Part shown: positions 4,543-58,706 of the stretch, in pieces
How the letters are laid out: each line of letters starts with the position of its first letter
Position numbering within the stretch: the stretch's first letter is position 1
From: a virus
Lineage: Duplodnaviria; Caudoviricetes
Length of the DNA stretch: 64,000 nucleotides
Virus record (IMG/VR): IMGVR_UViG_3300028797_000004
Direction: 5' to 3' (one strand)
Position numbers and translations under genes: made by a program
Notes under the pieces: generated by a model
Database searches by the model: none
What the model was told of the DNA's origin: nothing
What the model saw: only the letters and a program-made list of their open reading frames with translations

Positions 4543-5037
4543 ATGGCAGAATTACACCAGAATCTGGAGGGCGTATCCCTTCTTGGTAATCAGAATACAA
4601 AGTATAAGTATGAGTATGACCCAAGCATACTTGAGAAATTTGAGAATAACCATCGCGATAGCGACGACATCGTTTCGCTTGATGCGTTTGAGTTTTGTTC
4701 AAGATGCCCAAAAACGGGACAGCCAGACTTTGCAACAATCTATATTTCATACATACCAGATCAGTATCTAGTTGAAAGCAAGTCTTTGAAATTATATCTG
4801 TTTTCATTCCAGCAGCATGGAGCTTTTCATGAAACTTGTGTGCATCAGATCATGCAAGATTTAGTGGAGTTCTTACAGCCTAGATATCTTGAGGTGTATG
4901 GCGACTTCAACTCACGCGGAGGCATAAGTATCCTTCCATATTCCGCATACGCAACAGAACAGTATAAAGATTTCAAGATGCTGCGTCAACTTGCTGTGAT
5001 GGACAAAGCAATCGGTCACACACCTAGAGCGCATTGA
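4543..5037 (+). CDS. queF: NADPH-dependent preQ0 reductase QueF (unimodular)
   Basis: [39 protein letters not shown]. Confidence 0.93.
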
Positions 5038-5074
5038 AACAATATACTCATATTCCGCGAAAGGAGATAGCTAG

Positions 5075-6025
5075 ATGCGATATGTACTGTCTGGTAATTT
5101 AACTAAACAGATGGTTGAGTACCTTACACAGATGCCCAGATTTGAGCCGCTTGATGTGCTAGTATCTCAACTTGATAGAAGTTCTATCAAAGAGATGATA
5201 GAGCATCGAAAGAACGGCATAGTGAAGACACTGTTTATCGACTCCGGTGCATTTTCTGTGCATACAGGAAAAGCTAAAGTTGATATAGATGAATACATCG
5301 AGTATGTTAACGGCATAGACGAGTACATCGAGATGGTAGCTCAAGTAGATACAATTCCTGGTACATTCGGTAAGGCGAAGTCTGCTGAAGACTATGCGGA
5401 ATCGTCAAGAAAGTCTTGGGAGAATTTTCTGTATATGTACCATAAGATGAAATCTCCTGAGAAACTCGTACCCGTATTCCATTTCGGCGAGCCATTTTCT
5501 ACTCTGAAGAATATGCTTGACTGGCGAGACGAAAATGGAAAACCGCTTACATATGTTGGAATCAGTCCTGCGAATGATACTTCGCAGAACATCAAAAATC
5601 AGTATATGGGTGAGGTGGCAAGCTTCATTTCACAGTCAAACAATCCTGATGTAAGGGTGCATTACTTTGGAATGACAAGCCTTGATGCACTTTCTAAGTA
5701 CCCTGCATTCTCGGCAGATTCAGTTTCACATAGATTACAAGCTGCTTATAATAAAATTTTTACTCCTGATTTTGGTACAATTTCATTGTCAAGAAAGTCT
5801 AGATCCTCTAAAACTAAAAGTAATATGAGTTTTGTGGATGTAGCAGACGAGGCGGCGTTAAATAAATTGAAAGCTTATTTAGCCAGCTTGAATGTGACGC
5901 TTGAAGAGTGTCAAGAGAACCACAACGCAAGATCTGCGGTTTGTATTCGAGGCATATTGGATTGGGTGAAAGCTCACCCATATGACCCTAAGAATCGTGT
6001 TCGCAGCAGGAGGTTTCTCACATGA
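5075..6025 (+). CDS. dpdA: DpdA-like DNA guanine transglycosylase (TGT fold)
   Basis: [33 protein letters not shown] motifs; lies between queF and queC. Confidence 0.8.
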
Positions 6026-6594
6026 TCGAGTGGAAACCTGTAGTTGGGTATGAAGGCTTGTATGAAGTATCAAATCAAGGCGATGTGAAAAGTTTAGCAA
6101 GGACTGTATTGACATCTTCAGGTAGACTTCGTAGCATTCGTGAATGCGTCAAACGCCATGATATAGACAAATTTGGATATCATAAGGTTGGGTTGAATCG
6201 GGACGGTAAAGAACGAACTGCGGCAGTTCATCGGCTTGTAGCGCAAGCATTCATACCTAATCCTGAAAACAAACCTCAAGTAAATCATATTGATGGTGAT
6301 AAATCAAATAACTGTGTGGAAAATCTAGAATGGGTCACTTCTAAAGAAAATATACGCCATGCAATTGCTACTGGATTGACAACCCAGACTCAATTGTTTG
6401 CTTCGCTTCATGCTGCGTCTTTAGCAAACTTTAAATCAGTTATCTGCATAGAAACTGGTGTTATATACGCTTCTAGAGCTGATGCAGCTGAAGCACTAGG
6501 TCTACCTAGAAACTCCACAGCCATATGGAATTCTATAAAGTATGGCTGGGCAGTTAACAAGAAGTTCCATTTCAAAGCATATAAGGAGGAATAA
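6022..6594 (+). CDS. NUMOD4-HNH homing endonuclease
   Basis: [18 protein letters not shown] (NUMOD4), [31 protein letters not shown] (HNH). Confidence 0.92.
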
Positions 6595-6596
6595 TC

Positions 6597-7310
6597 ATGG
6601 ACGATTCAATCAAAGCTGTTGTTCTCGTGTCAGGCGGTGTGGACTCTGCTACTTGCCTCGGCATAGCTGTAGATAAGTATGGTGCTGAGAATGTAAAAGC
6701 TCTGGGTATTACATATGGTCAAAAGCATGAAATTGAACAAGAAAGTGCAGAGAAAATCTGCGCTTACTTTGGCGTAGAGCTCTACCACATAGATATTACT
6801 AACGTAATGCAATATAGCAACTGTGCATTGCTCAAGCAGAGTACAGAGGCGATCCCTGAGAAGTCTTATGCAGAGCAGATGGAAGAAAACGGCAGCGGTC
6901 GCGTTACTACATATGTACCTTACAGAAATGGTACAATGCTTTCAGTAGCAGCTGCTTTCGCTGATAGTGTATTTCCGAATCAAGCTGTTAAGCTCTTCTA
7001 CGGTGCCCATGCTGATGATGCAGCAGGTGAAGCTTACGCAGACTGCTCAGTAGCGTTTATCAAGGCGCAAGCAGCAGCTATCAAAATCGGCACATATGGA
7101 AACATAGAGCTTGAAGGCCCACTTGCAGAGATGAATAAGACTCAAGTAGTAGCTACAGGTCTTGCTCTTAAGAAGCCAGTACCTTATGAGCTGACTCATA
7201 GTTGCTACGAAGGTGTACCTGGTGGTTGTGGTAAGTGCGGCACATGTATTGACCGACTTGCAGCATTCAGAGCAAACGGACTCAACGACGACGGAACACT
7301 TAATAAGTGA
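6597..7310 (+). CDS. queC: 7-cyano-7-deazaguanine synthase QueC
   Basis: SGGVDS PP-loop, YGQKH, TYVPYRN, YADC, SCY...CGKCGTC. Confidence 0.95.
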   Translation: MDDSIKAVVLVSGGVDSATCLGIAVDKYGAENVKALGITYGQKHEIEQESAEKICAYFGVELYHIDITNVMQYSNCALLKQSTEAIPEKSYAEQMEENGSGRVTTYVPYRNGTMLSVAAAFADSVFPNQAVKLFYGAHADDAAGEAYADCSVAFIKAQAAAIKIGTYGNIELEGPLAEMNKTQVVATGLALKKPVPYELTHSCYEGVPGGCGKCGTCIDRLAAFRANGLNDDGTLNK

Positions 7311-7319
7311 GGTGGCATT

Positions 7320-7523
7320 ATGGCTGTAGAAAATAAACCTGCTTGTGGTCAGCACCCAACCAACAAAGTTCGTGAAACACTCACTGGCGATGCAGAATGC
7401 AACGCATATGATTACGAATATGATTGTGGTGCTGTTTACCATCAGAATTACATGGATGTAGTTGGTAATCGTGACCATGATTGCTTCTGGGACTGTTCAC
7501 GTTGTAAAAATAAACAGAATTAA
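7320..7523 (+). CDS. Small Cys-rich hypothetical protein
   Basis: GAGGTG RBS; 67 aa with 6 Cys. Confidence 0.55.
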   Translation: MAVENKPACGQHPTNKVRETLTGDAECNAYDYEYDCGAVYHQNYMDVVGNRDHDCFWDCSRCKNKQN

Positions 7524-7550
7524 CAGCTCAGCCCTGCTCTGCAGGGCTAT

Positions 7551-7633
7551 GCCTATGTGGTGAAACTGGCAGACACAGCGGACTCAAAATCCGCCTCGCA
7601 AGAGTGCAGGTTCGACTCCTGTCATAGGCACCA
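7551..7633 (+). tRNA. tRNA-Leu(CAA)
   Basis: GCCTATG/CATAGGC acceptor, GCGGA-CTCAAAA-TCCGC anticodon arm, variable arm, GGTTCGACTCC, encoded CCA. Confidence 0.93.
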
Positions 7634-7692
7634 AAAGTCTACTTTCGCATACAACCTACAATAAATATGAAGATTTCCAAGGAGGTTTCAGT

Positions 7693-8079
7693 ATGGCTTA
7701 TCTACGACAATTCAGACTATTTTCACACAATGATGCTCTCGCACATACTCGTGTTTTCAATATCAAAGACATACAAGAATACATGTGGCTACAGATCCCT
7801 GCAGTGCTCAGCCCATATATAGACCTCACTGGTGTGGTTAATATGCAAGTTGCAGACGGAGCTCTCCCTGATTTCACGGAGAAAATCACTCGTGAAGGAA
7901 GAAACTGCTGGCTAAAGATAGATTCCACATTGTTCAATACCGAAATAGGTCTGCACTTCTACAGGTTTGATTTTCTAAATCCTGTAACAGCTGAAGTCAT
8001 ACCTTTATACTTCGCATATTCACTACAGAATGATGATCCAGAGAAACCATACATCTATATGGACAGGAGTGAATCCTAA
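7693..8079 (+). CDS. Hypothetical protein (probably late)
   Basis: GGAGG RBS; ACCTACAATA motif upstream. Confidence 0.6.
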   Translation: MAYLRQFRLFSHNDALAHTRVFNIKDIQEYMWLQIPAVLSPYIDLTGVVNMQVADGALPDFTEKITREGRNCWLKIDSTLFNTEIGLHFYRFDFLNPVTAEVIPLYFAYSLQNDDPEKPYIYMDRSES

Positions 8080-11441: not shown

Positions 11442-13794
11442 CGATATACCTGAGAAGATCTACAAGATATATCATAGCTGTACACCTGATGAACAGAAAA
11501 TATTGATGCAGATCCTGAAAGAGCTCAGTGATTCTGATATGGGCTACTCTCCTACATATACTGATATCTGGCTTGCCGATTATAAGGAGATCCCAGTTGA
11601 CATCGACACATTCTTAAATGATGATTTGTATCTAGGTAGAACAAACCGCAACGGAGCAGCTGTATATCCTTTCTGGCGAAACGAATTACACACCGTATTT
11701 GATGCAGGCAATAAATTCTATGAGTGGATACTTACTGGTGCTACTCGTATCGGCAAGACGTCTACGTTCAACTCAGGTATGGCATATATGCTATATAAGC
11801 TGATGTGTCTGCGTAATCCGCAAGCGTTTTTTGGTAAAAAAGATGTTACACAATTCAGTGTATTATTCTTTAATCTAACTGAAGAATTAGCTAGGGGCGT
11901 AGCGTTTCGAGAATTTAACGACACGATAGCAGCAAGCCCTTGGTTCTTACAAAATGGACGAATGTCCAGCTCTAAAGAAAACTCATATTACATTCCTGAT
12001 GGCGGTAAAGTATCTATCGACTTCGGTAGTTCTTATGCACATGGTCTTGGTAAACATGTTTACTGCTTAATTGCTGAAACATCTGTACTCACCAAAGATG
12101 GATACAAAACATTAGGTGAGCTCGCTAAGAAGAAAACAGCAGTAGAGATTGCACAGTATGACCCTGCAGGAAGAGTTGAGTTTTCAAAAGCTAAGGTGCA
12201 ATGCACAAAGCTTACGCACATTACAGTAAAGCTCACGCTTGAGGATGGATCTTGCATTGAGGGATCAAAAGATCATCTGATGCTTACATCGCTCAACAAG
12301 TATAAGTCACTTAGCGATTTCGCAGTAGGTGAAGCGCTTCTATGCTATCAAAGCAAACCTGTGAAGGTCACCGCTACTAAAGTAGTATTGCATACACGTG
12401 AGCCAGTACAGCTGTATGATGTAATTGACATCAAGCCTCACCATAATTTCATTATAAAGGACAAATCACACTTCATATCTCATAACTGCTGCGCTATGGA
12501 CGAGATCAACTTCTCACAAGCTGGTATTCGTGATGTAACTAAAGCGAAAACTCGTATGCGAGAAGTATACAACGTATTGTCAACTCGTGTGAAAGGTACA
12601 TTTAAGCACGGCGGTGAAGTCTTCGGTAAGATTTTCGCAGCATCGTCTAAGCGTAGTGATAGTGACTTCATGGAAGATTATATCGCTGAGCAGATGGCTG
12701 CTGGTGCTGCTGAGCACATGCACGTATCTGGTGCACCACAATGGGAAGTACTACCACCTGGCACATTCTCAGAGAAGAAATTCTACATTGCTGTAGGTGA
12801 CCGGCATCACAAAGGCTTTGTAGTGCCTGATAACCAAACAAGTGAAGAAGATCTCAATGCTCTAAAGCAGCAAGGTTATGCATTGATGACACCTCCTATC
12901 GACATGAGGTCGGACTTCGTAGCTGATTTCAACGTAGCGTTGCGAGACCTAGCGGGTGTAGCTGTTCCAGGTTCTATGTCATTTATCACACAAGAACTGA
13001 TCACCGCATGCATCACAAAGAAGCGTAGAAATCCATTCCATCAAGATATTCTTGAAATCGGTGTACACGATTCTTACTCTATTGAAGAATTCTTCCACAT
13101 AGAAGACATCACACCAGAAATTAAAGCTGCAGGGTTGTATATACATCTTGACCTTGCGCTGAATACAGACCGTGCTGGTATATCTGGTGCGGGCATCATA
13201 GGTAGAAAAGACGTAGAAGTCACTGTACCAGGACAGGAGTCTAAAACAATGTCATTGCCTGTAGTAGGTCATGGCTTCTCAATTGCAATACAAGCACCTC
13301 GCGGTGATAAGATCCCATATGATAAGATACTCAAGTTCATCTTATGGCTGAGAAAAATAGGCTTACACATACATGTAGTTAGTCGAGACCAGTTCCAGAG
13401 TGAATACATGGGTCAGCTACTTGATACTAATGGTTTCAAAGAGGAGAAGATCTCGCTTGATAGAACACCAGATGGTTATGAATGCTTGAGGTCGCTGTTT
13501 GCTGAGCAACGTGTAGAGATGCTTGATGTACAGTTACTCCAAGACGAACTCATTCACTTACAACAAGACGCTATCTCACGTCGTGTGGACCACCCAACTG
13601 GGTCAGGAAAGGATGTTGCTGACTCCTTTGCAGGTGCAGTATGGCAAGCTATAAAGTACAACGAAGGTATACTTGTGCCGAAAACAAAGATAGCATCAGC
13701 TATCAGAAATGTAAATGCGACAAACAGAAGCGCATCAAAACCAACACCAAGATTTCCTGGTCTTCCAGGTATGGGCAAATTCAAAATATATTAA
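11431..13794 (+). CDS. terL: Terminase large subunit containing an intein
   Basis: GATRIGKT Walker A, CAMDE Walker B, HLDLA nuclease motif, DHP..GKDVADS; true start probably ATG 11431. Confidence 0.9.
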   Translation: MLFDDIPEKIYKIYHSCTPDEQKILMQILKELSDSDMGYSPTYTDIWLADYKEIPVDIDTFLNDDLYLGRTNRNGAAVYPFWRNELHTVFDAGNKFYEWILTGATRIGKTSTFNSGMAYMLYKLMCLRNPQAFFGKKDVTQFSVLFFNLTEELARGVAFREFNDTIAASPWFLQNGRMSSSKENSYYIPDGGKVSIDFGSSYAHGLGKHVYCLIAETSVLTKDGYKTLGELAKKKTAVEIAQYDPAGRVEFSKAKVQCTKLTHITVKLTLEDGSCIEGSKDHLMLTSLNKYKSLSDFAVGEALLCYQSKPVKVTATKVVLHTREPVQLYDVIDIKPHHNFIIKDKSHFISHNCCAMDEINFSQAGIRDVTKAKTRMREVYNVLSTRVKGTFKHGGEVFGKIFAASSKRSDSDFMEDYIAEQMAAGAAEHMHVSGAPQWEVLPPGTFSEKKFYIAVGDRHHKGFVVPDNQTSEEDLNALKQQGYALMTPPIDMRSDFVADFNVALRDLAGVAVPGSMSFITQELITACITKKRRNPFHQDILEIGVHDSYSIEEFFHIEDITPEIKAAGLYIHLDLALNTDRAGISGAGIIGRKDVEVTVPGQESKTMSLPVVGHGFSIAIQAPRGDKIPYDKILKFILWLRKIGLHIHVVSRDQFQSEYMGQLLDTNGFKEEKISLDRTPDGYECLRSLFAEQRVEMLDVQLLQDELIHLQQDAISRRVDHPTGSGKDVADSFAGAVWQAIKYNEGILVPKTKIASAIRNVNATNRSASKPTPRFPGLPGMGKFKIY
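12064..12486 (+). mobile_element. Mini-intein (141 aa, no endonuclease) in TerL
   Basis: Starts CLIAETSVLT, block B GSKDH, block F LYDVID, ends SHN followed by a +1 Cys; splicing restores KHVY-CCAMDE. Confidence 0.9.
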
Positions 13795-13805
13795 GGAGGT
13801 AGGAC

Positions 13806-15398
13806 ATGGAAAACCGTTTCAGTCCAATCAAAGCACCTCATTGCTGTACATCATTGCAGCCAGGTGCAACAGTAACACTTGTACCTTATGGTGTACTGAT
13901 AACAATACAGTACAGCTCAGAAGGTAACATCGAAAAAATCTACACAGGGGTGTACCCTTCGGGACAAGATGTAACGCCTAAGCTGATGAACAAATTTATT
14001 GACAATGCTGTAGCGCCAACGAAAATTAATATTACAGGCGGTACCACATGGGTTGTAGGTGTTATAGTACCACAAGGTATAATCTTTCAAGAAGGTACCG
14101 TCTCGACAGACATCGTAAATGATATGGTGGACGCTGATCCATCTACTTATCAATTTTATGCTGCATACATTGAGAGTAACGCAATAGCGTTCCACAATAT
14201 ACAATCAATCAATCATGTGTTGAGTACATACGGATTCAAGACATTACCTATGTGGGTAGTTCCTTTCGCAGGTGTATCTCAAGCAATCATGGATTCTTGG
14301 TTCAGTGCTGACACATGGATTTTCTCTACAAAGGTAGTTATGAACTATGTTTCATGGATGAACGGAGAGAAGTCTTGGTATACAACAGATCTGCATCAGT
14401 TAGAGGTTGATAGAGTTCAAGTTGATACAGATGCTGCAACTGGTATTGTTCATGCTACGCTGTATAATACTTCCGGTGAGCACATAGCTGTATCTATGTA
14501 TGATATATACAAGTATCAGATCCAGAAAGGCGCTATGGTGCTGCTTGATGCAATAGGTACAGTATTGCTTTCAGTCCCAACAGGTAAACACAAACAATCA
14601 CATGTGTCTAACACTATCACTTGTGCATACTGTGGTAAACAGTATAAGGTACAACCTGGTATTGAAACTATCTGTCCTGACACACACTGCACATCTAGAT
14701 TAGTTGAACGTATTAAGTTAATGCTTAATATGTTTAATTTACCTATCAATTATTCTGATGATGAGTGGTCCGAGAAGATAGCATCAAAACATCTCATGTG
14801 TTTAACAGATGTGTTCACGCTTCCTGTATTTGAGCACATGGAGATTACAACAACTCTTGCAAACATTCTCAGAGCTTTGATTCCAATATCTCTTATCAGG
14901 AGTAATGATGTGTTTGAAGAATTTGCAAATAGATGCAACAATAACGTAACCACATTTCAGTATTATGTCACAAACTTCGACAGAGCTGAGTTTGATCTCA
15001 ATTTTCATCACACTGATGCCCCTAAGCTGGGCTGCTGGCTGAGTGAGCCTGCTAATGCTTCTGATGTAGCTGCTGTGCTGATGCTACCTAACCTTACAGT
15101 AACCGGTACAGGTAGAAGCTACAATGGTGCACCAATCTTCAGAAATAAACGGTTCTTCATCACTGGCGGATTCAAACGTGGTGCAATCAATGAAATAGCT
15201 GATTTCCTTCGCAGTTATTCCGCAGAGGTGTACACAGAATGGAATGACAAGATCAATGCTGTAGTTGTGGGCTCAACGCGCACAAACATAGACGGCCAAG
15301 CTATCTATAAAGCTCGCATGAAAGAGATTGACATATTTGACGAAGATGAATTTTTCACATGGTGCGATCTAGATTCGGACCTTGCGAACCTACAATAA
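13806..15398 (+). CDS. Degenerate NAD-dependent DNA ligase-like protein (Zn finger plus BRCT)
   Basis: CAYC..CPDTHC Zn finger; C-terminal BRCT (KRFFITG..VVG..KA); no KxDG motif at the expected position. Confidence 0.65.
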   Translation: MENRFSPIKAPHCCTSLQPGATVTLVPYGVLITIQYSSEGNIEKIYTGVYPSGQDVTPKLMNKFIDNAVAPTKINITGGTTWVVGVIVPQGIIFQEGTVSTDIVNDMVDADPSTYQFYAAYIESNAIAFHNIQSINHVLSTYGFKTLPMWVVPFAGVSQAIMDSWFSADTWIFSTKVVMNYVSWMNGEKSWYTTDLHQLEVDRVQVDTDAATGIVHATLYNTSGEHIAVSMYDIYKYQIQKGAMVLLDAIGTVLLSVPTGKHKQSHVSNTITCAYCGKQYKVQPGIETICPDTHCTSRLVERIKLMLNMFNLPINYSDDEWSEKIASKHLMCLTDVFTLPVFEHMEITTTLANILRALIPISLIRSNDVFEEFANRCNNNVTTFQYYVTNFDRAEFDLNFHHTDAPKLGCWLSEPANASDVAAVLMLPNLTVTGTGRSYNGAPIFRNKRFFITGGFKRGAINEIADFLRSYSAEVYTEWNDKINAVVVGSTRTNIDGQAIYKARMKEIDIFDEDEFFTWCDLDSDLANLQ

Positions 15399-15413
15399 CA
15401 ATGAGGTGATAAC

Positions 15414-16919
15414 ATGGCTTCATTCTCCTTATTACGTAGACTTCGTAAGAAGTGGAAGCGCCAAGATCGAGACGAACGTAGACCATCTTTCTTACGAAGA
15501 TTAGTTTCAGGTACATTCTTCAGACCGTCAGACCTGAAACAAAGTAGTGATTTAGCTACAATTCGGTCAAAAATAGATATGATGCGAGCTCTTGCGAAAG
15601 ACTCGCAGATAGCTACAGCAATATCTTATTATGCTACAGATGCTACACAAGTGAATAGCGCGGGACAGATTATCTGGGCTACTTCTGAGAAAGAAGAGAT
15701 CGCAAATGTAATCAATGATTTGTTCAAGCGACTAAAAGTGAACAGATACGTTCGTGACCACATAGTTGAGCTTACAACTATTGGTAATGCGTATATGCCT
15801 ACTACACTCATGTACAAGACTTTGTCCAAGGACAGAATCGCAAATGGTGTAGCTCTTGATAACAATACAATTATTGATGACAAATTCGATTTAGTTCCAG
15901 CTTACATGATTCCTCCAGAGGATATTGTACACCTTTGGTCTGAGGGCCAGCCTCAGGGCTATGGGTACAAGCCTGAGGAAGATGAATCAATCGAGTTCGT
16001 TCGCTTCCCTGAAGATGCTGTAATCCATTTTTCATTGGGTGGATGTTTAGGTAAGTACTCCCTTTCAACTCGTGACCCTAAGACTGGTGACGAAGTAGAC
16101 TGGGACATACAGTTTGCCGATCCATTACTTGAAGCAGCTGTAACTCCTACACAGACTCTTAACTTACTTGAAGATGCGTTGCTACTTTCCTCTTTCGTTC
16201 GCGTAGTCAAATTTATCAATGTTGACTGTCGTGAGGCAGAGGAAGAAGAAATTCAGAATACTCTTCAGCAGGTTAAGGATGCTGTTGAGCAGCAGCTTTC
16301 AATTGATACCAATACAGGCAGAGCTGAAAGCTATCTGAATCCGCAAGCACCTAATAACTTCATCTATGTCCCTAAGGTAGATGCAACAGATCCAATTTCT
16401 GTTACAGACCTTAACATGACTGAAGCAAACGATGCTGAGAACAAGATGTTAGATCACTTTGAGACCAAGAAGCTTTCAGTACTTGGTATTCCAAAGGAAG
16501 CATTGAACTATTCGTCTAATGAGGGTCTTGGCGGTGCAGGCTCTGTAATGTCCCAAAGATCTGCACTATACGCTAATTCACTTCAACGAATTGAGCAAGC
16601 TTATCTTGATGGCTGGACAGAAGGCCTCAATGCTTATTTCAGAAATCGTAACATGGGTGGATTTGTTGATAAGTTTGAGCTTCATATGCAGCCTATCATT
16701 ACACTACAATCTACTGTACAGTTTGATAAGCGCGATGCTGCGCTCAATCAGGCAATTCAGTATGCACAGCTCTTAAGAGATAACGGCGTAACTGATCCGC
16801 AGACATACCAAGAAGGTTTTGTAGAGATCCTTAGCGAGACCTTCCCGAAGATCGGAACAGCTGCTGCATCTTGGAGCGTTAACATAGTAACCGACGGAGG
16901 TGGCGGTGATGAATACTAA
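15414..16919 (+). CDS. Portal protein
   Basis: About 500 aa after terL; IATAISYYATDAT, VIHF, LEDALLL, LGIPKEAL patterns. Confidence 0.8.
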   Translation: MASFSLLRRLRKKWKRQDRDERRPSFLRRLVSGTFFRPSDLKQSSDLATIRSKIDMMRALAKDSQIATAISYYATDATQVNSAGQIIWATSEKEEIANVINDLFKRLKVNRYVRDHIVELTTIGNAYMPTTLMYKTLSKDRIANGVALDNNTIIDDKFDLVPAYMIPPEDIVHLWSEGQPQGYGYKPEEDESIEFVRFPEDAVIHFSLGGCLGKYSLSTRDPKTGDEVDWDIQFADPLLEAAVTPTQTLNLLEDALLLSSFVRVVKFINVDCREAEEEEIQNTLQQVKDAVEQQLSIDTNTGRAESYLNPQAPNNFIYVPKVDATDPISVTDLNMTEANDAENKMLDHFETKKLSVLGIPKEALNYSSNEGLGGAGSVMSQRSALYANSLQRIEQAYLDGWTEGLNAYFRNRNMGGFVDKFELHMQPIITLQSTVQFDKRDAALNQAIQYAQLLRDNGVTDPQTYQEGFVEILSETFPKIGTAAASWSVNIVTDGGGGDEY

Positions 16920-27745: not shown

Positions 27746-29356
27746 ATGGCTGAACTCAATGCTGAGCAGAAAGCTGCTGTAGAGTGCACAGATAGAAAAA
27801 TAGTTTGTATTGCAGGCGCAGGCGCAGGCAAGACCAAAACATTAGTTTCTAGATTGATACATCAAGTAGTTGGTGGCGCTGATGCAACTCATATGTTAGT
27901 GCTCACATTTACAAATGCTGCTGCACAAGAAATGAAAGCTCGATACATCGCTGCTGCACCTGAATTTGATGTACCAACCTTCGGAACATTCCATTCATTC
28001 TGTTATTCACTACTTGTAAATCCTGACATACGCAACGCTCTTGGCTATACAGATGTGCCTACAGTAGCTACACCTGAAGACATTAAATTCTGTAACTCAC
28101 AAGCTAAGCTGATAACAAGACCTAAGCTTCTTGAATCTGAAATGTCTGGTGACGGAGAGAATCTACCTTCATCTAAGAAGCGAGATTACGAGACGTTCAA
28201 GCGTTGTAGAGATAAGCTTCTGCGACAGAGAGGTCTTATCACATTTGATATGATGTGCTACGACATAGGTCAGCTGTTTATCAATGATGAAGCTTGTGTG
28301 CAGCCGATAAAGCGTAGATATGAGTATGTGGTGTGCGACGAGATGCAAGATTCAGACAAACGGCAGATGTCGTTTCTTAAGTCTTTTAAAGATGCAAACT
28401 TATTTGTGGTAGGTGATGCCAAACAGAATCTATATAGCTTCCGAGGTACAACTAACAGGATAATCAAATCGCTTGCTGAATCTGATGAGTGGACAACAAT
28501 CAAGATGTATAAGAACTACAGATGCACAGAAGAAATATGCGAGTTTGCTAACAAGATTCATAAAAGTTGGGGAGATTCTCCTTACAACTTAGCAATACAT
28601 AGTGATAAGCATGATCCGGATTCTGTACATTTTATGCCCGCTTCCGAAGCTTATGAAGTAACCCCTTTGTATTTGTTAGAGATTACACAGAATTCTGATA
28701 AGGAGTCAATTGCATTCTTAGTTCGTACTAATGCAGAAGTAGCTTCGCTTGTAGATAAATGCAAGGCAGTTGGCGTGAAGTATCACACTAATAGTTCCGC
28801 TGACTGGCGAGCTTCCATGCTGCTGGCGTTACAAGATGAGCAGTATGCTATTACCTGGCTGCCGTCAGTACTTAATGCTACTAAGTATAACAATTATCTG
28901 CGGGCGTGCATACTTAATCCGGAATATAAAACTATCATAGGCTTACAGCATTTCACAAGTGAGGACGAAGTGTTTGCTGAGAGATACGGGACATATCTTA
29001 CGCTTAAAACACTACTTGACACAAATATATCTGTATTTCAGAAGTATAAGTCAATCACAGAGAAGCTTGACCTCCCATTTGACGTAGCTGACACACCCGA
29101 TACTGTTGAAGGTATATTTGATCTCCTCAATACTAAACTTGGTAGCGCAACTACTGATGAAGGTGTTTACATCGGTACAATACATTCGTCAAAAGGACTT
29201 GAATACGATACTGTGCACTTGTTCGGCGTAGGCGGATCCAGCTTCCAGATCTCCGACGAGGACTCAAAGAATGTCTTCTATGTAGGATGCACAAGAGCTA
29301 AGAATAATCTTTATATCTATTCGGATAAATATAGAAAGGATGATGAAGAATGCTAG
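27746..29356 (+). CDS. UvrD/PcrA-like SF1 helicase
   Basis: AGAGAGKT, TFTNAAA, DEMQD, VGDAKQNLYSFRG, NYR, TIHSSKGLE, YVGCTRAK. Confidence 0.93.
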   Translation: MAELNAEQKAAVECTDRKIVCIAGAGAGKTKTLVSRLIHQVVGGADATHMLVLTFTNAAAQEMKARYIAAAPEFDVPTFGTFHSFCYSLLVNPDIRNALGYTDVPTVATPEDIKFCNSQAKLITRPKLLESEMSGDGENLPSSKKRDYETFKRCRDKLLRQRGLITFDMMCYDIGQLFINDEACVQPIKRRYEYVVCDEMQDSDKRQMSFLKSFKDANLFVVGDAKQNLYSFRGTTNRIIKSLAESDEWTTIKMYKNYRCTEEICEFANKIHKSWGDSPYNLAIHSDKHDPDSVHFMPASEAYEVTPLYLLEITQNSDKESIAFLVRTNAEVASLVDKCKAVGVKYHTNSSADWRASMLLALQDEQYAITWLPSVLNATKYNNYLRACILNPEYKTIIGLQHFTSEDEVFAERYGTYLTLKTLLDTNISVFQKYKSITEKLDLPFDVADTPDTVEGIFDLLNTKLGSATTDEGVYIGTIHSSKGLEYDTVHLFGVGGSSFQISDEDSKNVFYVGCTRAKNNLYIYSDKYRKDDEEC

Positions 29357-29868: not shown

Positions 29869-30241
29869 GTCAGATTTCACTAGAGATATTGAACTTCGTG
29901 CAAGGAAGATGCTGAAGACAAAAGCATTTCTTTCAGAGTTTGCTAAGCATCTGTCAGGGCTGAAAGAGTTCAGCAAGGTGGAGTATGAAGTGACAATTGA
30001 TGCTGCGGGCTATGTGAAAGCAAATGTTGACAGATTAATCAGTGTTTCACACAATAGCCGAAACAAGACAAATCTTATAACTCATATTCTACTTCTGCAC
30101 TGCTCTTCAGAAGATTCACAATTAGGGATACATGGTGACGGTAGCAGGTACCGATTAAACTTATCGCAGTATGTGATAGGTACATATAAGTATGAGCTGT
30201 CATCAACAGGTAAGACTCGGCATTGGAGGAAAATATCATGA
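29861..30241 (+). CDS. Hypothetical protein
   Basis: GGAGG RBS; coupled. Confidence 0.5.
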   Translation: MNRSDFTRDIELRARKMLKTKAFLSEFAKHLSGLKEFSKVEYEVTIDAAGYVKANVDRLISVSHNSRNKTNLITHILLLHCSSEDSQLGIHGDGSRYRLNLSQYVIGTYKYELSSTGKTRHWRKIS

Positions 30242-30606
30242 GAAAGCGATTTTCAAATACAGTGGTGTGCGGACGCTCAGTTCAAGTAGGTAACTTCTAT
30301 CGAAGCTACAATGGTACTTGTGTTGAAGTCATTGCTATCGCAGAGAATGTAGAAACTGGTCAAGAGATGGTCGTCTATCGTACTCGTCACGAACAGAAAC
30401 GTGAAATTGACGATATGATTCTCACTTGTACTGCCGAGGCATTCTTGAGTGATGTGCAAGTTGGTGGTGTAACCAAGACTCGATATCGTGAGGTACTGAT
30501 AGGCGTAACACGTTTTCACGATAAAGAGTGGGTAGAGCTTCTTGAATCGTCACCTATGCGATCACGTCACATGATAAGTTTTGAAACGCAGGAGGGGGCT
30601 CAGTAG
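30238..30606 (+). CDS. DUF1653-like protein
   Basis: G.FYRSYNG..VEVIAIA...[10 protein letters not shown]. Confidence 0.6.
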
Positions 30607-31730
30607 TGTTTAGATCATTTAGATTTCGATTGCATTTATCTACATTTCAGTCCGCACAAGTTCGACAAACATTCGGCTGTTGCCGATTTGTCTACAATTA
30701 TTTTCTAGCGGATTCTATCAAACAATACAAAGCTGACAAACAAAGCTTCAACTTATTTCAAAGTTTCAAGCAGCTTTCAGCAATGAGGAAGCTGTCAGAG
30801 TACAGCTGGTTACAACAAGCTGATAGCGAAGCTTTGAGATATGCTTTGAAGCAGCTGAACTCAGCTTACCAAAATTTCTTCAGAAGTTTGGAGTCAGATA
30901 AACATATATGCTTTCCGAAGTTCAAATTTAAACGATTTGCAAAGCAAACATATACAACATCGGCTGTGAACGAAGCTACATTCCGTATTGAAAACAATAA
31001 GATTTTCATACCTAAATTAGGGTTTGTTAAATTCCGAGGTCGTCAACATATGCAAGGCAAACCGATTCATGCTACAATCTCAAGGTCTGCAACTGGAAAA
31101 TATTATATTTCTGTTGTTTGCAAAGATGTTCAAATTGATAAGTTACCTGAAACGCATCAAAGTGTAGGTATAGATTTAGGTCTGAAAGATTTTGCAATCA
31201 CCTCAGACAGAGAAAAATTCTCAAATCCAAAATTCTTCGCAAAATACCAAAAACAGCTTGCAAAAGCTCAAAGAAAGCTGTCCCGAAAACCAAAGGGCAG
31301 CCATAACTTCGAGAAGCAAAAGCTGAGAGTTGCAAGAATTCACGAGAAAATTACAAACTGTCGAACAGATTTCTTGCAGAAGCTATCAACAAGTTTGATT
31401 CGCAGATATGATATCCTCTGCATTGAAGACCTGTCAGTGCAAGGCATGATGCAGAATCATAAGCTTGCAAAATCAATTGCGGATGTTTCTTGGTCACGAT
31501 TTGTATCAATGCTGAGCTACAAAGCTGAGTGGTATGGTAGAACTCTCCAGAAAATCAACAAGTTCTATCCAAGTTCACAATTGTGCAGCTGCTGCGGGCA
31601 TCAGAATCCAGATGTCAAAGACTTAGCAGTTCGCAGATGGATCTGCCCACAGTGCAACACAGAACACGACAGAGATACCAACGCAGCGAAAAACATTTTA
31701 GCTGAAGGTCTCAGATTACTTTCAGCTTAA
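30606..31730 (+). CDS. tnpB: TnpB RNA-guided endonuclease (IS200/IS605 family), no transposon ends visible
   Basis: HTH (FGCCRFVYN), RuvC GIDLG / IEDL / DRDTNAA, CSCC..CPQC Zn finger. Confidence 0.93.
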
Positions 31731-31740
31731 AATCGTTATG

Positions 31741-31860
31741 ATACGGTGAGCCACACCGGAATTCACGCCTTTGGAGATCTGATAAGACTTGCGCGCAAGC
31801 GCAAGCAAGGTCGTCGAACAAGGAAGAAACAGATTGTTTCGTGGCGTTATAGAATACATA
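31741..31860 (+). ncRNA. Putative omegaRNA of tnpB #1
   Basis: TACGGTGAGCCACACCGGAATTCACGCCTTTGGAGA...TAAGAC...GGAA scaffold typical of IS605/IS1341 right ends; 3' boundary uncertain. Confidence 0.65.
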
Positions 31861-31896
31861 CAAATCTACTGTTACTGAATGGAAGGAGTAACTACT

Positions 31897-33717
31897 ATGT
31901 ATAAAATTCAAAGCATAGAAATTCAGGGTCTGCACAATGTGATGCATGAGAAATACGACCTTGATAATTTCAATTATTTCTACGGCAAGAATGGCGCAGG
32001 TAAATCGACTATACTTAATGCGATCCAGCTTGCATTGCTTGGCTACATTCCTGGTACAGCTAAGACCAATGTAGCTATCATGAAGCATGCTAACGGCAAC
32101 TTGCTTGACGTCAAAGCTACAATTACTGACGATTCTGATGCAACAATCGTAGTAGAACGTATGTGGGTGCAGAAGGGTGCGTCTGTTTCGTCCACTACTA
32201 CAGTTACACCTGAAGTGGATCTGTCAACTATCTTAGGTGATCTGTCGGTTCCTGTTTTTGATTTCAATGAGTTTCTTAACCAGTCAGCTAATTCACTGAA
32301 AGCTTGGTTCATTGATATACTTCCACCTGTTGAGTCTGAAGTAGATCTTGCTAGCGAGCTTGAGAAGTCTGGTGCTGATTATCGTGTAACTGCAGCTGCG
32401 TATTACCTTGCTGGTGTAGCGGATCGTATCTGCTCAAACAGCGGTGATCTTATATCTAAACTTCAGGCAGGCGTAGATATTGTCAAAGATGAAATTTCAG
32501 CTATGAAGGGGCAGATTGAAGCAAATCAGAAAACAATCAATACACTTATCTTCTATGATGAGACCTTACCTGGTAGCATAGATGCAGCAAAATCAGCTTA
32601 TGAAGCAGCTATCCTGAAGTCGAATGCGGCAAGAGATAGATTCACAGAAGTGAAATCAAAGCAAAATCTCCTTATACAGCTGGATTCGCTTAATGCTTCA
32701 CTTGCAGAATCTATGGATGCTGATGAAGCTCTGAAGTCTGCTAGAACACGACGTATTGCAACAGCTGCAGCACTTCATGAGAACGAAAAGCTTCAGAATG
32801 AGCTTCGTACAGAAATTGATACGCTCAAGAATGATCTCACAACCCTTCAGCCGATTATCAATAGTCATGGTCAATGTCCGTTTACAAAGTCTGTATGTTT
32901 AACTATTGATGAGAAACGCGAATCGGCTCAGAAAGATTTTGATGAGAAGTATGCAAGAAAAGCAATGCTTGACTCTAAGTACAACGCAACTACAATGACT
33001 ATCAATACAAATCGAGCTGAGCTGCAAACGCTTGACAAAACTATTGCCAACATTGAAGCTCAGTACACCAAGCGAGATGAGCTTCGTCAGTTAGTAGGCA
33101 GTGCAGAGGTAGTGGATCTTTCTGTTTTGGAAGCAGATATTCAGGAAGCTTCACAAGAGATGCTTACAGCAAGGGAAGCTCTGTCTAAGGTAGAAGCTAA
33201 TCACAAGTTCACAGAACTTAGTGAGAAACTCACAATGGAGAAGGTTGTCTGCGAAGCAAATCTCAATGTGCTGAAAGCTTGGGAGAAGATCCTTGGGCCT
33301 AACGGTTTACAGACCACTGCTGCTAAAGCAACATTCAATCAGCTTGCATCAAAGATATCTGCATATCTTACAAAGCTGCTTGGCGAACCTTGTGAAGCTG
33401 GTTTTACACTTACAGCTAAAGCAAACTCGTTTGACTTCGGCATCAAACGCGGAGATACATATGTGAACTTCACAACATTGTCTAGCGGAGAGCAGTGCAT
33501 TTACACACTTGCGATGTTGCTTGCACTTACAGAGACTGCCGATACACAGATGCCCTTTATCATGATTGATGACCTTCTGGATCATCTTGACGTAGCAAAG
33601 GCGAGCGCCGTGTTCTCAACCTTGTATGATATAGCTGGTATACAAATATTACTTGCAGGTGTGCAGCCATGCGATCATCCTGCTGCTAACCAGTTTGTAA
33701 AAGTAATTGGAGGATAA
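31897..33717 (+). CDS. SMC/SbcC/Rad50-like ATPase
   Basis: GKNGAGKST, coiled coil with CPF..C hook, LSSGE, IDDLLDHLD. Confidence 0.88.
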   Translation: MYKIQSIEIQGLHNVMHEKYDLDNFNYFYGKNGAGKSTILNAIQLALLGYIPGTAKTNVAIMKHANGNLLDVKATITDDSDATIVVERMWVQKGASVSSTTTVTPEVDLSTILGDLSVPVFDFNEFLNQSANSLKAWFIDILPPVESEVDLASELEKSGADYRVTAAAYYLAGVADRICSNSGDLISKLQAGVDIVKDEISAMKGQIEANQKTINTLIFYDETLPGSIDAAKSAYEAAILKSNAARDRFTEVKSKQNLLIQLDSLNASLAESMDADEALKSARTRRIATAAALHENEKLQNELRTEIDTLKNDLTTLQPIINSHGQCPFTKSVCLTIDEKRESAQKDFDEKYARKAMLDSKYNATTMTINTNRAELQTLDKTIANIEAQYTKRDELRQLVGSAEVVDLSVLEADIQEASQEMLTAREALSKVEANHKFTELSEKLTMEKVVCEANLNVLKAWEKILGPNGLQTTAAKATFNQLASKISAYLTKLLGEPCEAGFTLTAKANSFDFGIKRGDTYVNFTTLSSGEQCIYTLAMLLALTETADTQMPFIMIDDLLDHLDVAKASAVFSTLYDIAGIQILLAGVQPCDHPAANQFVKVIGG

Positions 33718-37254: not shown

Positions 37255-37334
37255 TGGGGTATCGTCAAGCGGTTCAAGACAGCAGATTTTGATTCTGCCA
37301 TATGTCGGGAGTTCAAATCTCTCTACCCCAACCA
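37255..37334 (+). tRNA. tRNA-Gln(TTG)
   Basis: TGGGGTA/TACCCCA, GCAGA-TTTTGAT-TCTGC, GTTCAAATC, CCA. Confidence 0.88.
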
Positions 37335-37826: not shown

Positions 37827-37911
37827 GCAGATGTGGTGAAACTGGAAGACACGCGAGATTTAGGTTCTCGTACCGAAAGGTGTGTAGGTTCAAATCCTAT
37901 CATCTGCACCA
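37827..37911 (+). tRNA. tRNA-Leu(TAG)
   Basis: GCAGATG/CATCTGC, CGAGA-TTTAGGT-TCTCG, variable arm, CCA. Confidence 0.92.
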
Positions 37912-38144: not shown

Positions 38145-38218
38145 GCAGATGTAGCACAACGGTAGTGCATCAGCTTCCCAAGCTGAGGACACGAGTTCGA
38201 CACTCGTTATCTGCTCCA
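38145..38218 (+). tRNA. tRNA-Gly(CCC)
   Basis: GCAGATG/TATCTGC, TCAGC-TTCCCAA-GCTGA, GTTCGAC, TCCA. Confidence 0.9.
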
Positions 38219-58589: not shown

Positions 58590-58706
58590 ACAGAGCTTGC
58601 AACTTATGTGAGCTAATGCGAGATTAAACGAGATGAAATATTTCAATGTGTATCGGTATCGTTATATACTACGAGTATAATATTTCAAATAAAGGAGGTT
58701 TCTAAT

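Follow-up and report, generated by a model that had tools for sequence, protein, structure and literature searches.

The locus lies within a 64,000-nucleotide stretch of DNA (the window), which corresponds to bases 21082-85081 of G000, a 148,711-bp phage genome from IMG/VR with direct terminal repeats. DNA of this ~149-kb rumen phage was found in cattle and goat gut or rumen metagenome runs from 13 studies, and no RNA run containing the locus was listed. The genes around the locus are co-oriented and tightly packed, comprising a UvrD-like helicase gene, two small ORFs, a DUF1653 gene, a TnpB ORF, a gene for an SbcC/Rad50-like ATPase and a phosphoribosyltransferase gene (Table 1), and the TnpB cassette is positioned between two DNA-repair genes. 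Megablast and blastn searches of a phage collection with the locus retrieved no related phage, just distant matches to tnpB coding sequence. No related locus was found in IMG/VR with SbcC and TnpB as queries, nor by exact-pattern scans of IMG/VR for the flank and the scaffold. Elsewhere in the window there are four tRNA genes (Leu-CAA at 7551, Gln-TTG at 37255, Leu-TAG at 37827 and Gly-CCC at 38145). In a sibling phage contig, L002, QueF-like and QueC genes adjoin an Acb2/Tad1-like gene (13373-15579, about window 5000-7700); the phage may encode a 7-deazaguanine DNA modification, which could influence cutting by nucleases, including TnpB.

The TnpB ORF matches HTH_OrfB_IS605 (PF12323), OrfB_IS605 (PF01385) and Cas12f1-like_TNB (PF07282) in Pfam, all above the cut-off, and the domain set of HTH/WED-REC, RuvC and zinc finger (TNB) is complete in its product. 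The best structure matches are those of TnpB from the Deinococcus radiodurans element ISDra2 (8bf8, 8exa and 8h1j; E=2.5e-99), which extend over the whole length at ~45% protein identity. The RuvC residues D190, E274 and D357 align with D191, E278 and D361 of ISDra2 and show no variation in alignment A1. The CxxC..CxxC zinc finger is kept as well (C327, C330, C347 and C350); both had been called intact in the original prediction. Between this tnpB and its sister copy in L002, dN/dS is 0.06 and pS is 0.39 over amino acids 124-374, which shows that TnpB is under purifying selection. The element is single-copy in G000. No match to the Y1 transposase TnpA (PF01797) and no reverse transcriptase were found in the whole 148.7-kb phage, and a tblastn search of plasmids found just ~48% relatives. 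One protein relative, P0003 (58% identity), was uninformative; the element that encodes it is a different, AT-rich one, which ends canonically in ..GGTTCAGG and contains an internal duplication.

The gene is a member of the TnpB family in an element that lacks two defining features of IS200/IS605 transposons, tnpA and the left-end hairpin. Unlike ISDra2, it also has no C-terminal domain (374 vs 408 aa), and six of the seven residues that contact the TAM in ISDra2 differ, the exception being N124. The absence of tnpA, the large phage host and an omegaRNA at the 3′ end are shared with solo (IS1341-type) phage tnpB genes. The same phage carries two other TnpB genes (Table 1). The second is preceded by a near-perfect sigma-70 promoter (TTGACA-17-TATAAT), its right end is a canonical GC hairpin plus GAGTTCAC, and a copy of the phage motif ATCGTTAT (see below) lies after it at 58658, ahead of the next gene. 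The third comes with a promoter-like sequence of its own, and its right end, ..GTATGTCAC, is canonical. A sigma-70-type promoter of their own and a terminal GC hairpin followed by GTTCAC/GTCAC are common to these two; the element studied here has neither and is coupled to the gene upstream.

Table 1. Positions of the features discussed (window coordinates unless stated otherwise)
Feature	Position	Strand	Evidence or remark
UvrD-like helicase gene	27746-29356	same orientation as block	
DUF1653 gene, 122 aa vs 111 aa in siblings	30238..30606	+	Pfam DUF1653; comparison with L003/L004
Inserted TnpB-omegaRNA element, 1275 bp, in place of TTGATT	30570..31844	+	empty sites in L003-L008; junction-bridging contigs in four other runs
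Minimal left end, no hairpin, no promoter	30570..30605	+	sequence, fold and promoter scans
tnpB, 374 aa, GTG start	30606..31730	+	Pfam domains; ISDra2 structures; RuvC triad, zinc finger
Recurrent intergenic phage motif ATCGTTAT, -10-like, just 5′ of minimal omegaRNA scaffold	31732..31739	+	enrichment; kept in L002
omegaRNA minimal scaffold (predicted)	31744..31844	+	MFE folds; 6/95 vs L002; block match to ISDra2 omegaRNA
Stem 1 hairpin, loop GCCAC	31744-31758	+	MFE folds, ISDra2 comparison
Stem 2, CCUU with AAGG	31768-71 with 31820-23	+	MFE folds, ISDra2 comparison
Stem 3a	31776-80 with 31808-12	+	MFE folds, ISDra2 comparison
Stem 3b, GC hairpin, tetraloop	31788-31805	+	MFE folds, ISDra2 comparison
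Stem 4, GAAAC-AGAUU-GUUUC, hairpin GAAACAGATTGTTTC, specific to this copy	31826-31840	+	ISDra2 comparison
3′ pseudoknot strand GUGG	31841-44	+	complementary to stem-1 loop
Predicted guide template CGTTATAGAATACATACAAA, also sbcC promoter core	31845..31864 (start +/-2 nt)	+	after scaffold/insert end; L004 match
SbcC/Rad50-like ATPase gene, downstream	31897..33717	+	Pfam SMC_N/AAA_23
Second, unrelated TnpB-like gene, 416 aa	57270-58590		OrfB_IS605 + TNB
Third TnpB, 365 aa, 44% identical to the studied one	G000 139881-141100 (outside window; locus L046)		

Insert boundaries, haplotypes and the sister element

Six collinear sibling contigs were available for comparison, two of which (L003 and L004) were found via a 96%-identical SbcC protein and four (L005-L008) via cluster members. 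In all six the site is empty, the DUF1653 gene encodes 111 amino acids and sbcC lies 54 nt further. The empty allele reads ..ACGTCA TTGATT CGTTATAG.. (..ACGTCA TTGATT CGTTATAGAATACATACAAATC.. in L004), and the window allele reads ..ACGTCA / CATGATAAG .. tnpB .. GTTTCGTGG / CGTTATAGAATACATACAAATC.., where slashes delimit the insert and the left boundary is ambiguous by the dinucleotide CA. The insertion point, between the DUF1653 and sbcC-like genes, is the junction of stop codon and promoter. In the more distant siblings L005-L008 the site reads TGAAC and there are four or five mismatches to the flank, so the empty state is the ancestral one. The original prediction was of a domesticated, immobile gene with no empty site in related phages; the synteny check instead found a clean empty site in every sibling, and the polymorphism and the second location described below likewise contradict that view.

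Occupied junctions are bridged by contigs in four runs of other studies (cattle and goat): X4 (30505-30726 and 31545-32500), X5 (30370-30746), X6 (31621-31866) and X3 (31689-31839 and 31826-32080). The reads of these four runs revealed neither the empty form nor a joint linking both alleles. The occupied contig of X5 has about 20 differences from the window within 30402-30504 and carries the letters of L004 at 27 of 28 variant sites. L004 itself is empty although it shares this DUF1653 haplotype, so one flank haplotype exists both with and without the insert. The insert is therefore present on at least two flank haplotypes, which are ~20% apart over 100 nt. A third scaffold variant was seen as a loose end, in run X3 only.

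The closest protein relative, P0002 (78%), is encoded on L002, a collinear sibling phage, at a different position, where its neighbors are a clamp-loader-like gene and the gene that precedes recA. This second site is empty in G000 and nine other relatives (..ACTTGTGTGAGACG..), and is occupied in L002 as ..ACTTGTGTG / CACATAGTTGATGCT ATG .. ACGGCG / GTGTGAGACG.., with a boundary that slides within a repeated GTGTG. The two sister elements are mosaic. They share ~91% nucleotide identity over 30975-31825, whereas the 5′ third of tnpB is only ~50% identical in nucleotides and 41% in amino acids, and the last ~19 nt are unrelated. In the omegaRNA scaffold, 6 of 95 nucleotides differ up to 31825 (6% vs 39% at synonymous sites), and together with the dN/dS of 0.06 this shows that the scaffold RNA and the protein are both under selection. 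It is odd that unrelated 19-nt tails should stand beside RNA-binding domains that are 93% identical.

The left end is minimal. The GTG start codon shares its G with the upstream stop codon TAG (30604-30606), as had been noted, so that the upstream ORF terminates exactly at the start of tnpB, and a ribosome-binding site, GGAGGGGG, lies at 30591-30598, 7 nt before that start. This site does fall inside the upstream ORF as proposed, but the stretch itself, the last 11 codons of the DUF1653 ORF and its TAG stop are all read from inserted DNA. In the siblings the DUF1653 stop is a TGA inside TTGAT, 11 codons earlier, which is lost in the window. Coupling of the nuclease to an upstream phage gene is real, and is a product of the insertion; neither a sigma-70-like site nor a terminator was found between 30056 and 30606. 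The reported lack of a left-end hairpin was likewise borne out, as the first 117 nt are no more stably folded than shuffled controls on either strand (z of +0.9 and +0.75), and the left 117 nt of the L002 element behave in the same way. At the right end, the sole stem found by the subterminal-hairpin test for IS200/IS605 elements is the 5-bp stem at 31826-31840. CATGAT in the left end is a possible degenerate remnant of TTGAT.

The scaffold, the phage motif and the predicted target

MFE folds independently recover stems 2, 3a and 3b, and the published ISDra2 omegaRNA (supplement of PMC10097598) matches the region after the tnpB stop codon in blocks. ISDra2 CGCUCAUGGAG..AGAC corresponds to CGCCUUUGGAG..AGAC in the window, the GC hairpin and tetraloop of stem 3b are present in both, and ISDra2 GCAAUGGUCUGCGAAG corresponds to CAAGGUCGUCGAAC. 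Stem 2 has changed on both strands, from UGAG (-35..-32):CUCA in ISDra2 to AAGG:CCUU in the window. Beyond stem 2, ISDra2 requires 31 more nucleotides, which form stem 4 and the 3′ pseudoknot strand, and the architecture of stems 2, 3a, 3b and 4 and of a 3′ strand pairing to the stem-1 loop appears homologous. The loop:tail pairing is GCCAC:GUGG in the window and GCCGC:GCGG in L002, a matching change. Unlike in ISDra2, the scaffold lies almost wholly past the stop codon, with a far shorter stem 4 and a GUGG end (GUUCAA in ISDra2). The original prediction was correct in that a scaffold is retained; the terminal GC hairpin is not replaced by GAAACAGATTGTTTC as it held, since that hairpin is present as stem 3b and GAAACAGATTGTTTC is best taken as the counterpart of stem 4. 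The assignment of the scaffold is based on two sequences and a manual comparison, without covariance statistics. Scans for the scaffold pattern in GTDB genomes and IMG/VR gave chance matches only, outside any scaffold context, and a search of paper text for scaffold strings gave no relevant match.

An end of the scaffold at GGAA (31825), where the similarity to L002 stops although the insert continues to 31844, was favored at first and was reversed by the ISDra2 comparison. The block match, together with the GUGG pairing, suggests that the scaffold ends at the boundary of the insert, as in canonical elements. The guide would then most likely be the flank from 31845 +/-2 (CGTTATAGAATACATA..). 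The guide that had been proposed at 31841-31860 as a fixed one is thereby placed about 4 nt too far 5′, and is better read as the right flank of the local site, which also supplies the guide in ordinary IS200/IS605 TnpB elements.

The motif ATCGTTAT, pointed out previously between the stop codon and the scaffold, recurs 13 times in the window vs 1.95 expected; none of 100 shuffles reaches 13, and 12 copies are on the + strand. In the whole genome, which is ~88% coding, 14 of the 18 + strand copies are intergenic. Copies typically lie 20-90 nt ahead of start codons, inside a longer consensus TGAWTCGTTATW (+ strand sites include 22761, 26614, 27665, 37018, 49669, 56488, 58658 and 59156, and the sbcC site at 31840-31855 in its empty form). 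The enrichment and the intergenic bias mark it as a real regulatory signal, and the distance to ribosome-binding sites points to a -10-like role; TGAWTCGTTATW probably serves as the -10-like element in a class of phage-specific promoters, and no matching -35 was seen at its sites. The copy in the element is conserved in L002, stands 5 nt ahead of the first scaffold hairpin and lies near the 5′ edge of the 116-nt minimal scaffold as judged from ISDra2. Transcription starting a few bases 3′ of it would give a minimal omegaRNA continuing into sbcC. The corresponding position of ISDra2 reads AAGCGUUGU (PMC10097598), and two substitutions would turn this into the phage motif, so adaptation and chance are both possible.

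The right flank matches the empty allele of L004 at 22 of 22 positions, beside TTGAT(T). Three mismatches, all TAM-distal, distinguish L003 from the flank; in L005-L008 mismatches are more numerous and TTGAT is missing. TTGATT stands before the target in the empty allele, so that TTGAT, the TAM of ISDra2, is 1 nt off the flank match; it becomes directly adjacent only with a guide start at G31844, at the cost of one mismatch. Since so few TAM-contact residues are conserved, TTGAT is not assured as the TAM. The L002 junction would fit precise insertion behind TTGTG. In the window, where the empty site has TTGAT and TTGATT is replaced, the junction does not have the clean form of an IS605-type insertion; a canonical model would need T>CA plus either T>G or a deleted T. 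In one self-consistent reading, the right ends would be ..CGTG in the window and ..GGCGGTG in L002, and the TAMs TTGAT and TTGTG, respectively. The L002 insertion would then be precise, and that in the window would need T>CA plus T>G at guide position 1, the T>CA change being the one that removes the DUF1653 stop and creates the TAGTG coupling. The occupied allele is not expected to be cleaved by its own complex, because ..TCGTGG occupies the position of the TAM.

The suggestion that the guide holds a promoter core is supported for the predicted guide, since the flank coincides with the core of the sbcC promoter motif TGATTCGTTATAGAAT, which the insert splits between TGATT and CGTTAT. As the guide begins with this core, and TGATT followed by CGTTATAGAA occurs at another promoter as well, it is conceivable, though speculative and of little likelihood, that the complex might bind promoters of siblings or of its own genome and influence transcription. 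Promoter-motif sites at G000 115247 (outside the window) and at window 4029 combine TGATT with the initial 7-10 nt of the predicted guide (TGATTCGTTATAGAAcg and TGATTCGTTATAtc). These matches are too short for known TnpB cleavage and are possible weak binding sites. As to the proposed aim of the guide at host or competitor DNA, the competitor part is supported, with sibling phage DNA as the predicted target, and a host target was found for none of the candidate guides.

Proposed homing and competing explanations

In our view the element is probably mobile and selfish, of a homing type and adapted to phage expression, rather than a fixed domesticated gene. More specifically, we favor, with a probability of about 0.6, a compact tnpA-less ISDra2-like TnpB-omegaRNA element that acts as a free-standing homing endonuclease gene among ~149-kb rumen phages. 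Under this model, read-through from the upstream phage gene and translational coupling to it would yield TnpB, and the omegaRNA would be either cut from the transcript of that gene or transcribed from the internal ATCGTTAT, with the right flank (about 31845-31860) as its guide. In a mixed infection the complex would cut sibling genomes without TnpB at TTGAT(T)+CGTTATAGAATACATA. The break would be repaired from the TnpB+ genome by phage recombination (RecA, SbcCD and UvrD), which would copy in the element with nearby flank, and the occupied allele would be immune, the scaffold end (..TCGTGG) having replaced the TAM. The model is supported by the six empty siblings, the two haplotypes, the sister locus, the purifying selection, the match of the flank and the absence of both tnpA and a reverse transcriptase. 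It should be noted that general phage recombination alone could also put one insertion on several haplotypes.

The lineage is rich in other homing elements, with LAGLIDADG genes and inteins besides the two further TnpBs. The UvrD helicase gene of L004 is interrupted by a LAGLIDADG-like gene (673-1650, - strand), LAGLIDADG insertions occur in recA (735 vs 382 aa; L024 3009-5216) and in the clamp-loader gene (752 vs about 486 aa; L025/L032 237-2495), and an intein with HNH is present in DNA polymerase A of L002 (167-2758). The element resembles the free-standing homing genes of T4-like phages (Seg and Mob) in being intergenic, present or absent among siblings, equipped with phage expression signals and found on several haplotypes. 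TnpA-independent homing of IS605 elements into orthologous empty sites has been discussed as 'transposon non-restorative homing' (PMC13565253), and, as in that process and in Seg/Mob homing, the nuclease studied here would be expected to cleave the matching empty allele of co-infecting genomes. Unlike in Seg/Mob, recognition would be RNA-guided and would span the insertion point, and homing is here a matter of deduction. With TldR and other domesticated TnpBs the element shares a TnpB-family protein and a guide that overlaps a promoter; it differs from them in its intact catalytic residues, its polymorphic locus and a guide that is local flank.

Among the other explanations, a domesticated phage weapon, kept for destroying co-infecting TnpB-less siblings or host DNA with its own copying secondary, fares best, and we still hold it to be unlikely. 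Expression tied into a phage operon, a phage motif ahead of the omegaRNA, strong purifying selection and a guide that matches sibling genomes would all suit such a role, and phage endonucleases are known mediators of interference competition (PMC11620839). A weapon of this kind is harder to reconcile with a polymorphic locus without conserved synteny, with a guide that is merely local flank, as in selfish elements, and with the finding of a host or other target for 0 candidate guides. Interference competition is also a benefit compatible with homing, and killing and homing are not mutually exclusive.

It is somewhat less likely again that the cassette carries its guide with it. The scaffold would then end at GGAA (31825), and the following 19 nt, GAAACAGATTGTTTCGTGG, would be a guide from an earlier locus; the cassette would have moved by illegitimate recombination or break repair and would have its targets elsewhere. 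Such a history would account for the abrupt stop of the L002 similarity at 31825, beyond which both inserts run 17-22 nt further, about the length of a guide, for junctions that resemble break repair (6 nt lost in the window, and 5-nt GTGTG microhomology in L002), and for a TTGAT in the left end of L002. It is opposed by the correspondence of AAGG (31820-23) to -35..-32 of ISDra2, which means that ~20-30 nt more of scaffold are required, and by the tail itself, a hairpin plus a GUGG that pairs with the stem-1 loop and has a matching change in L002. Furthermore, neither tail was found to have a target beyond chance among the phage, its relatives, IMG/VR and JGI metagenomes. With the 19-nt tail as guide, JGI metagenomes gave ten matches in unrelated contexts, all without TTGAT. 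A 20-nt exact match to GAAACAGATTGTTTCGTGGC in L048 and L049 (IMG/VR) and L022 (JGI) falls within the 5′-terminal part of an unrelated ORF (MNIRKTQRKNKTKQIVSW..), directly follows AAGAC and was judged a chance match given the size of the databases. No target was found with the L002 tail as guide, and neither tail aligned locally with the empty alleles or with sibling DNA at a significant level. RNA-mediated (cDNA) insertion was also considered and was rejected, as the phage has no reverse transcriptase and the ISDra2 comparison accounts for the tail.

The least probable of these alternatives is an ordinary non-autonomous IS200/IS605 element, moved by a host TnpA in trans, with TnpB serving for retention only and the phage features incidental: the L002 junction, compatible with precise, duplication-free insertion after TTGNN, the TTGAT at the insertion point of the empty window site, the frequency of solo tnpB in phages (429 phage records matched) and the two canonical TnpB elements in the same genome fit it, but there is no left-end hairpin, just 17-36 nt precede the start codon, tnpA is absent from the phage and the element is single-copy in the genome.

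Homing may also have gone further, although we regard the following as a speculative extension of little likelihood. The lineage could now persist solely as an RNA-guided homing gene of lytic phages without transposase ends, in which new sites are gained by modular exchange and ATCGTTAT has been co-opted for a minimal omegaRNA. The exchange would be one in which the N-terminal, TAM-reading third (41% amino acid identity) is swapped together with the last ~19 nt of the omegaRNA.

TnpB cuts the empty donor site, so that the transposon is retained. Non-restorative homing into orthologous empty sites of other replicons has been proposed, and has been seen with plasmids. The locus described here is a natural case from a phage population, with an occupied and an empty allele on one haplotype and a predicted guide that matches the empty allele, in an element stripped to a nuclease and its RNA and wired into phage expression signals. 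If this interpretation is true, marker exclusion and mosaicism in large phages would be driven by RNA-guided nucleases as well as by protein homing endonucleases, and the sister elements, whose TAM-reading modules and guide-RNA 3′ ends differ, would represent a natural re-targeting experiment.
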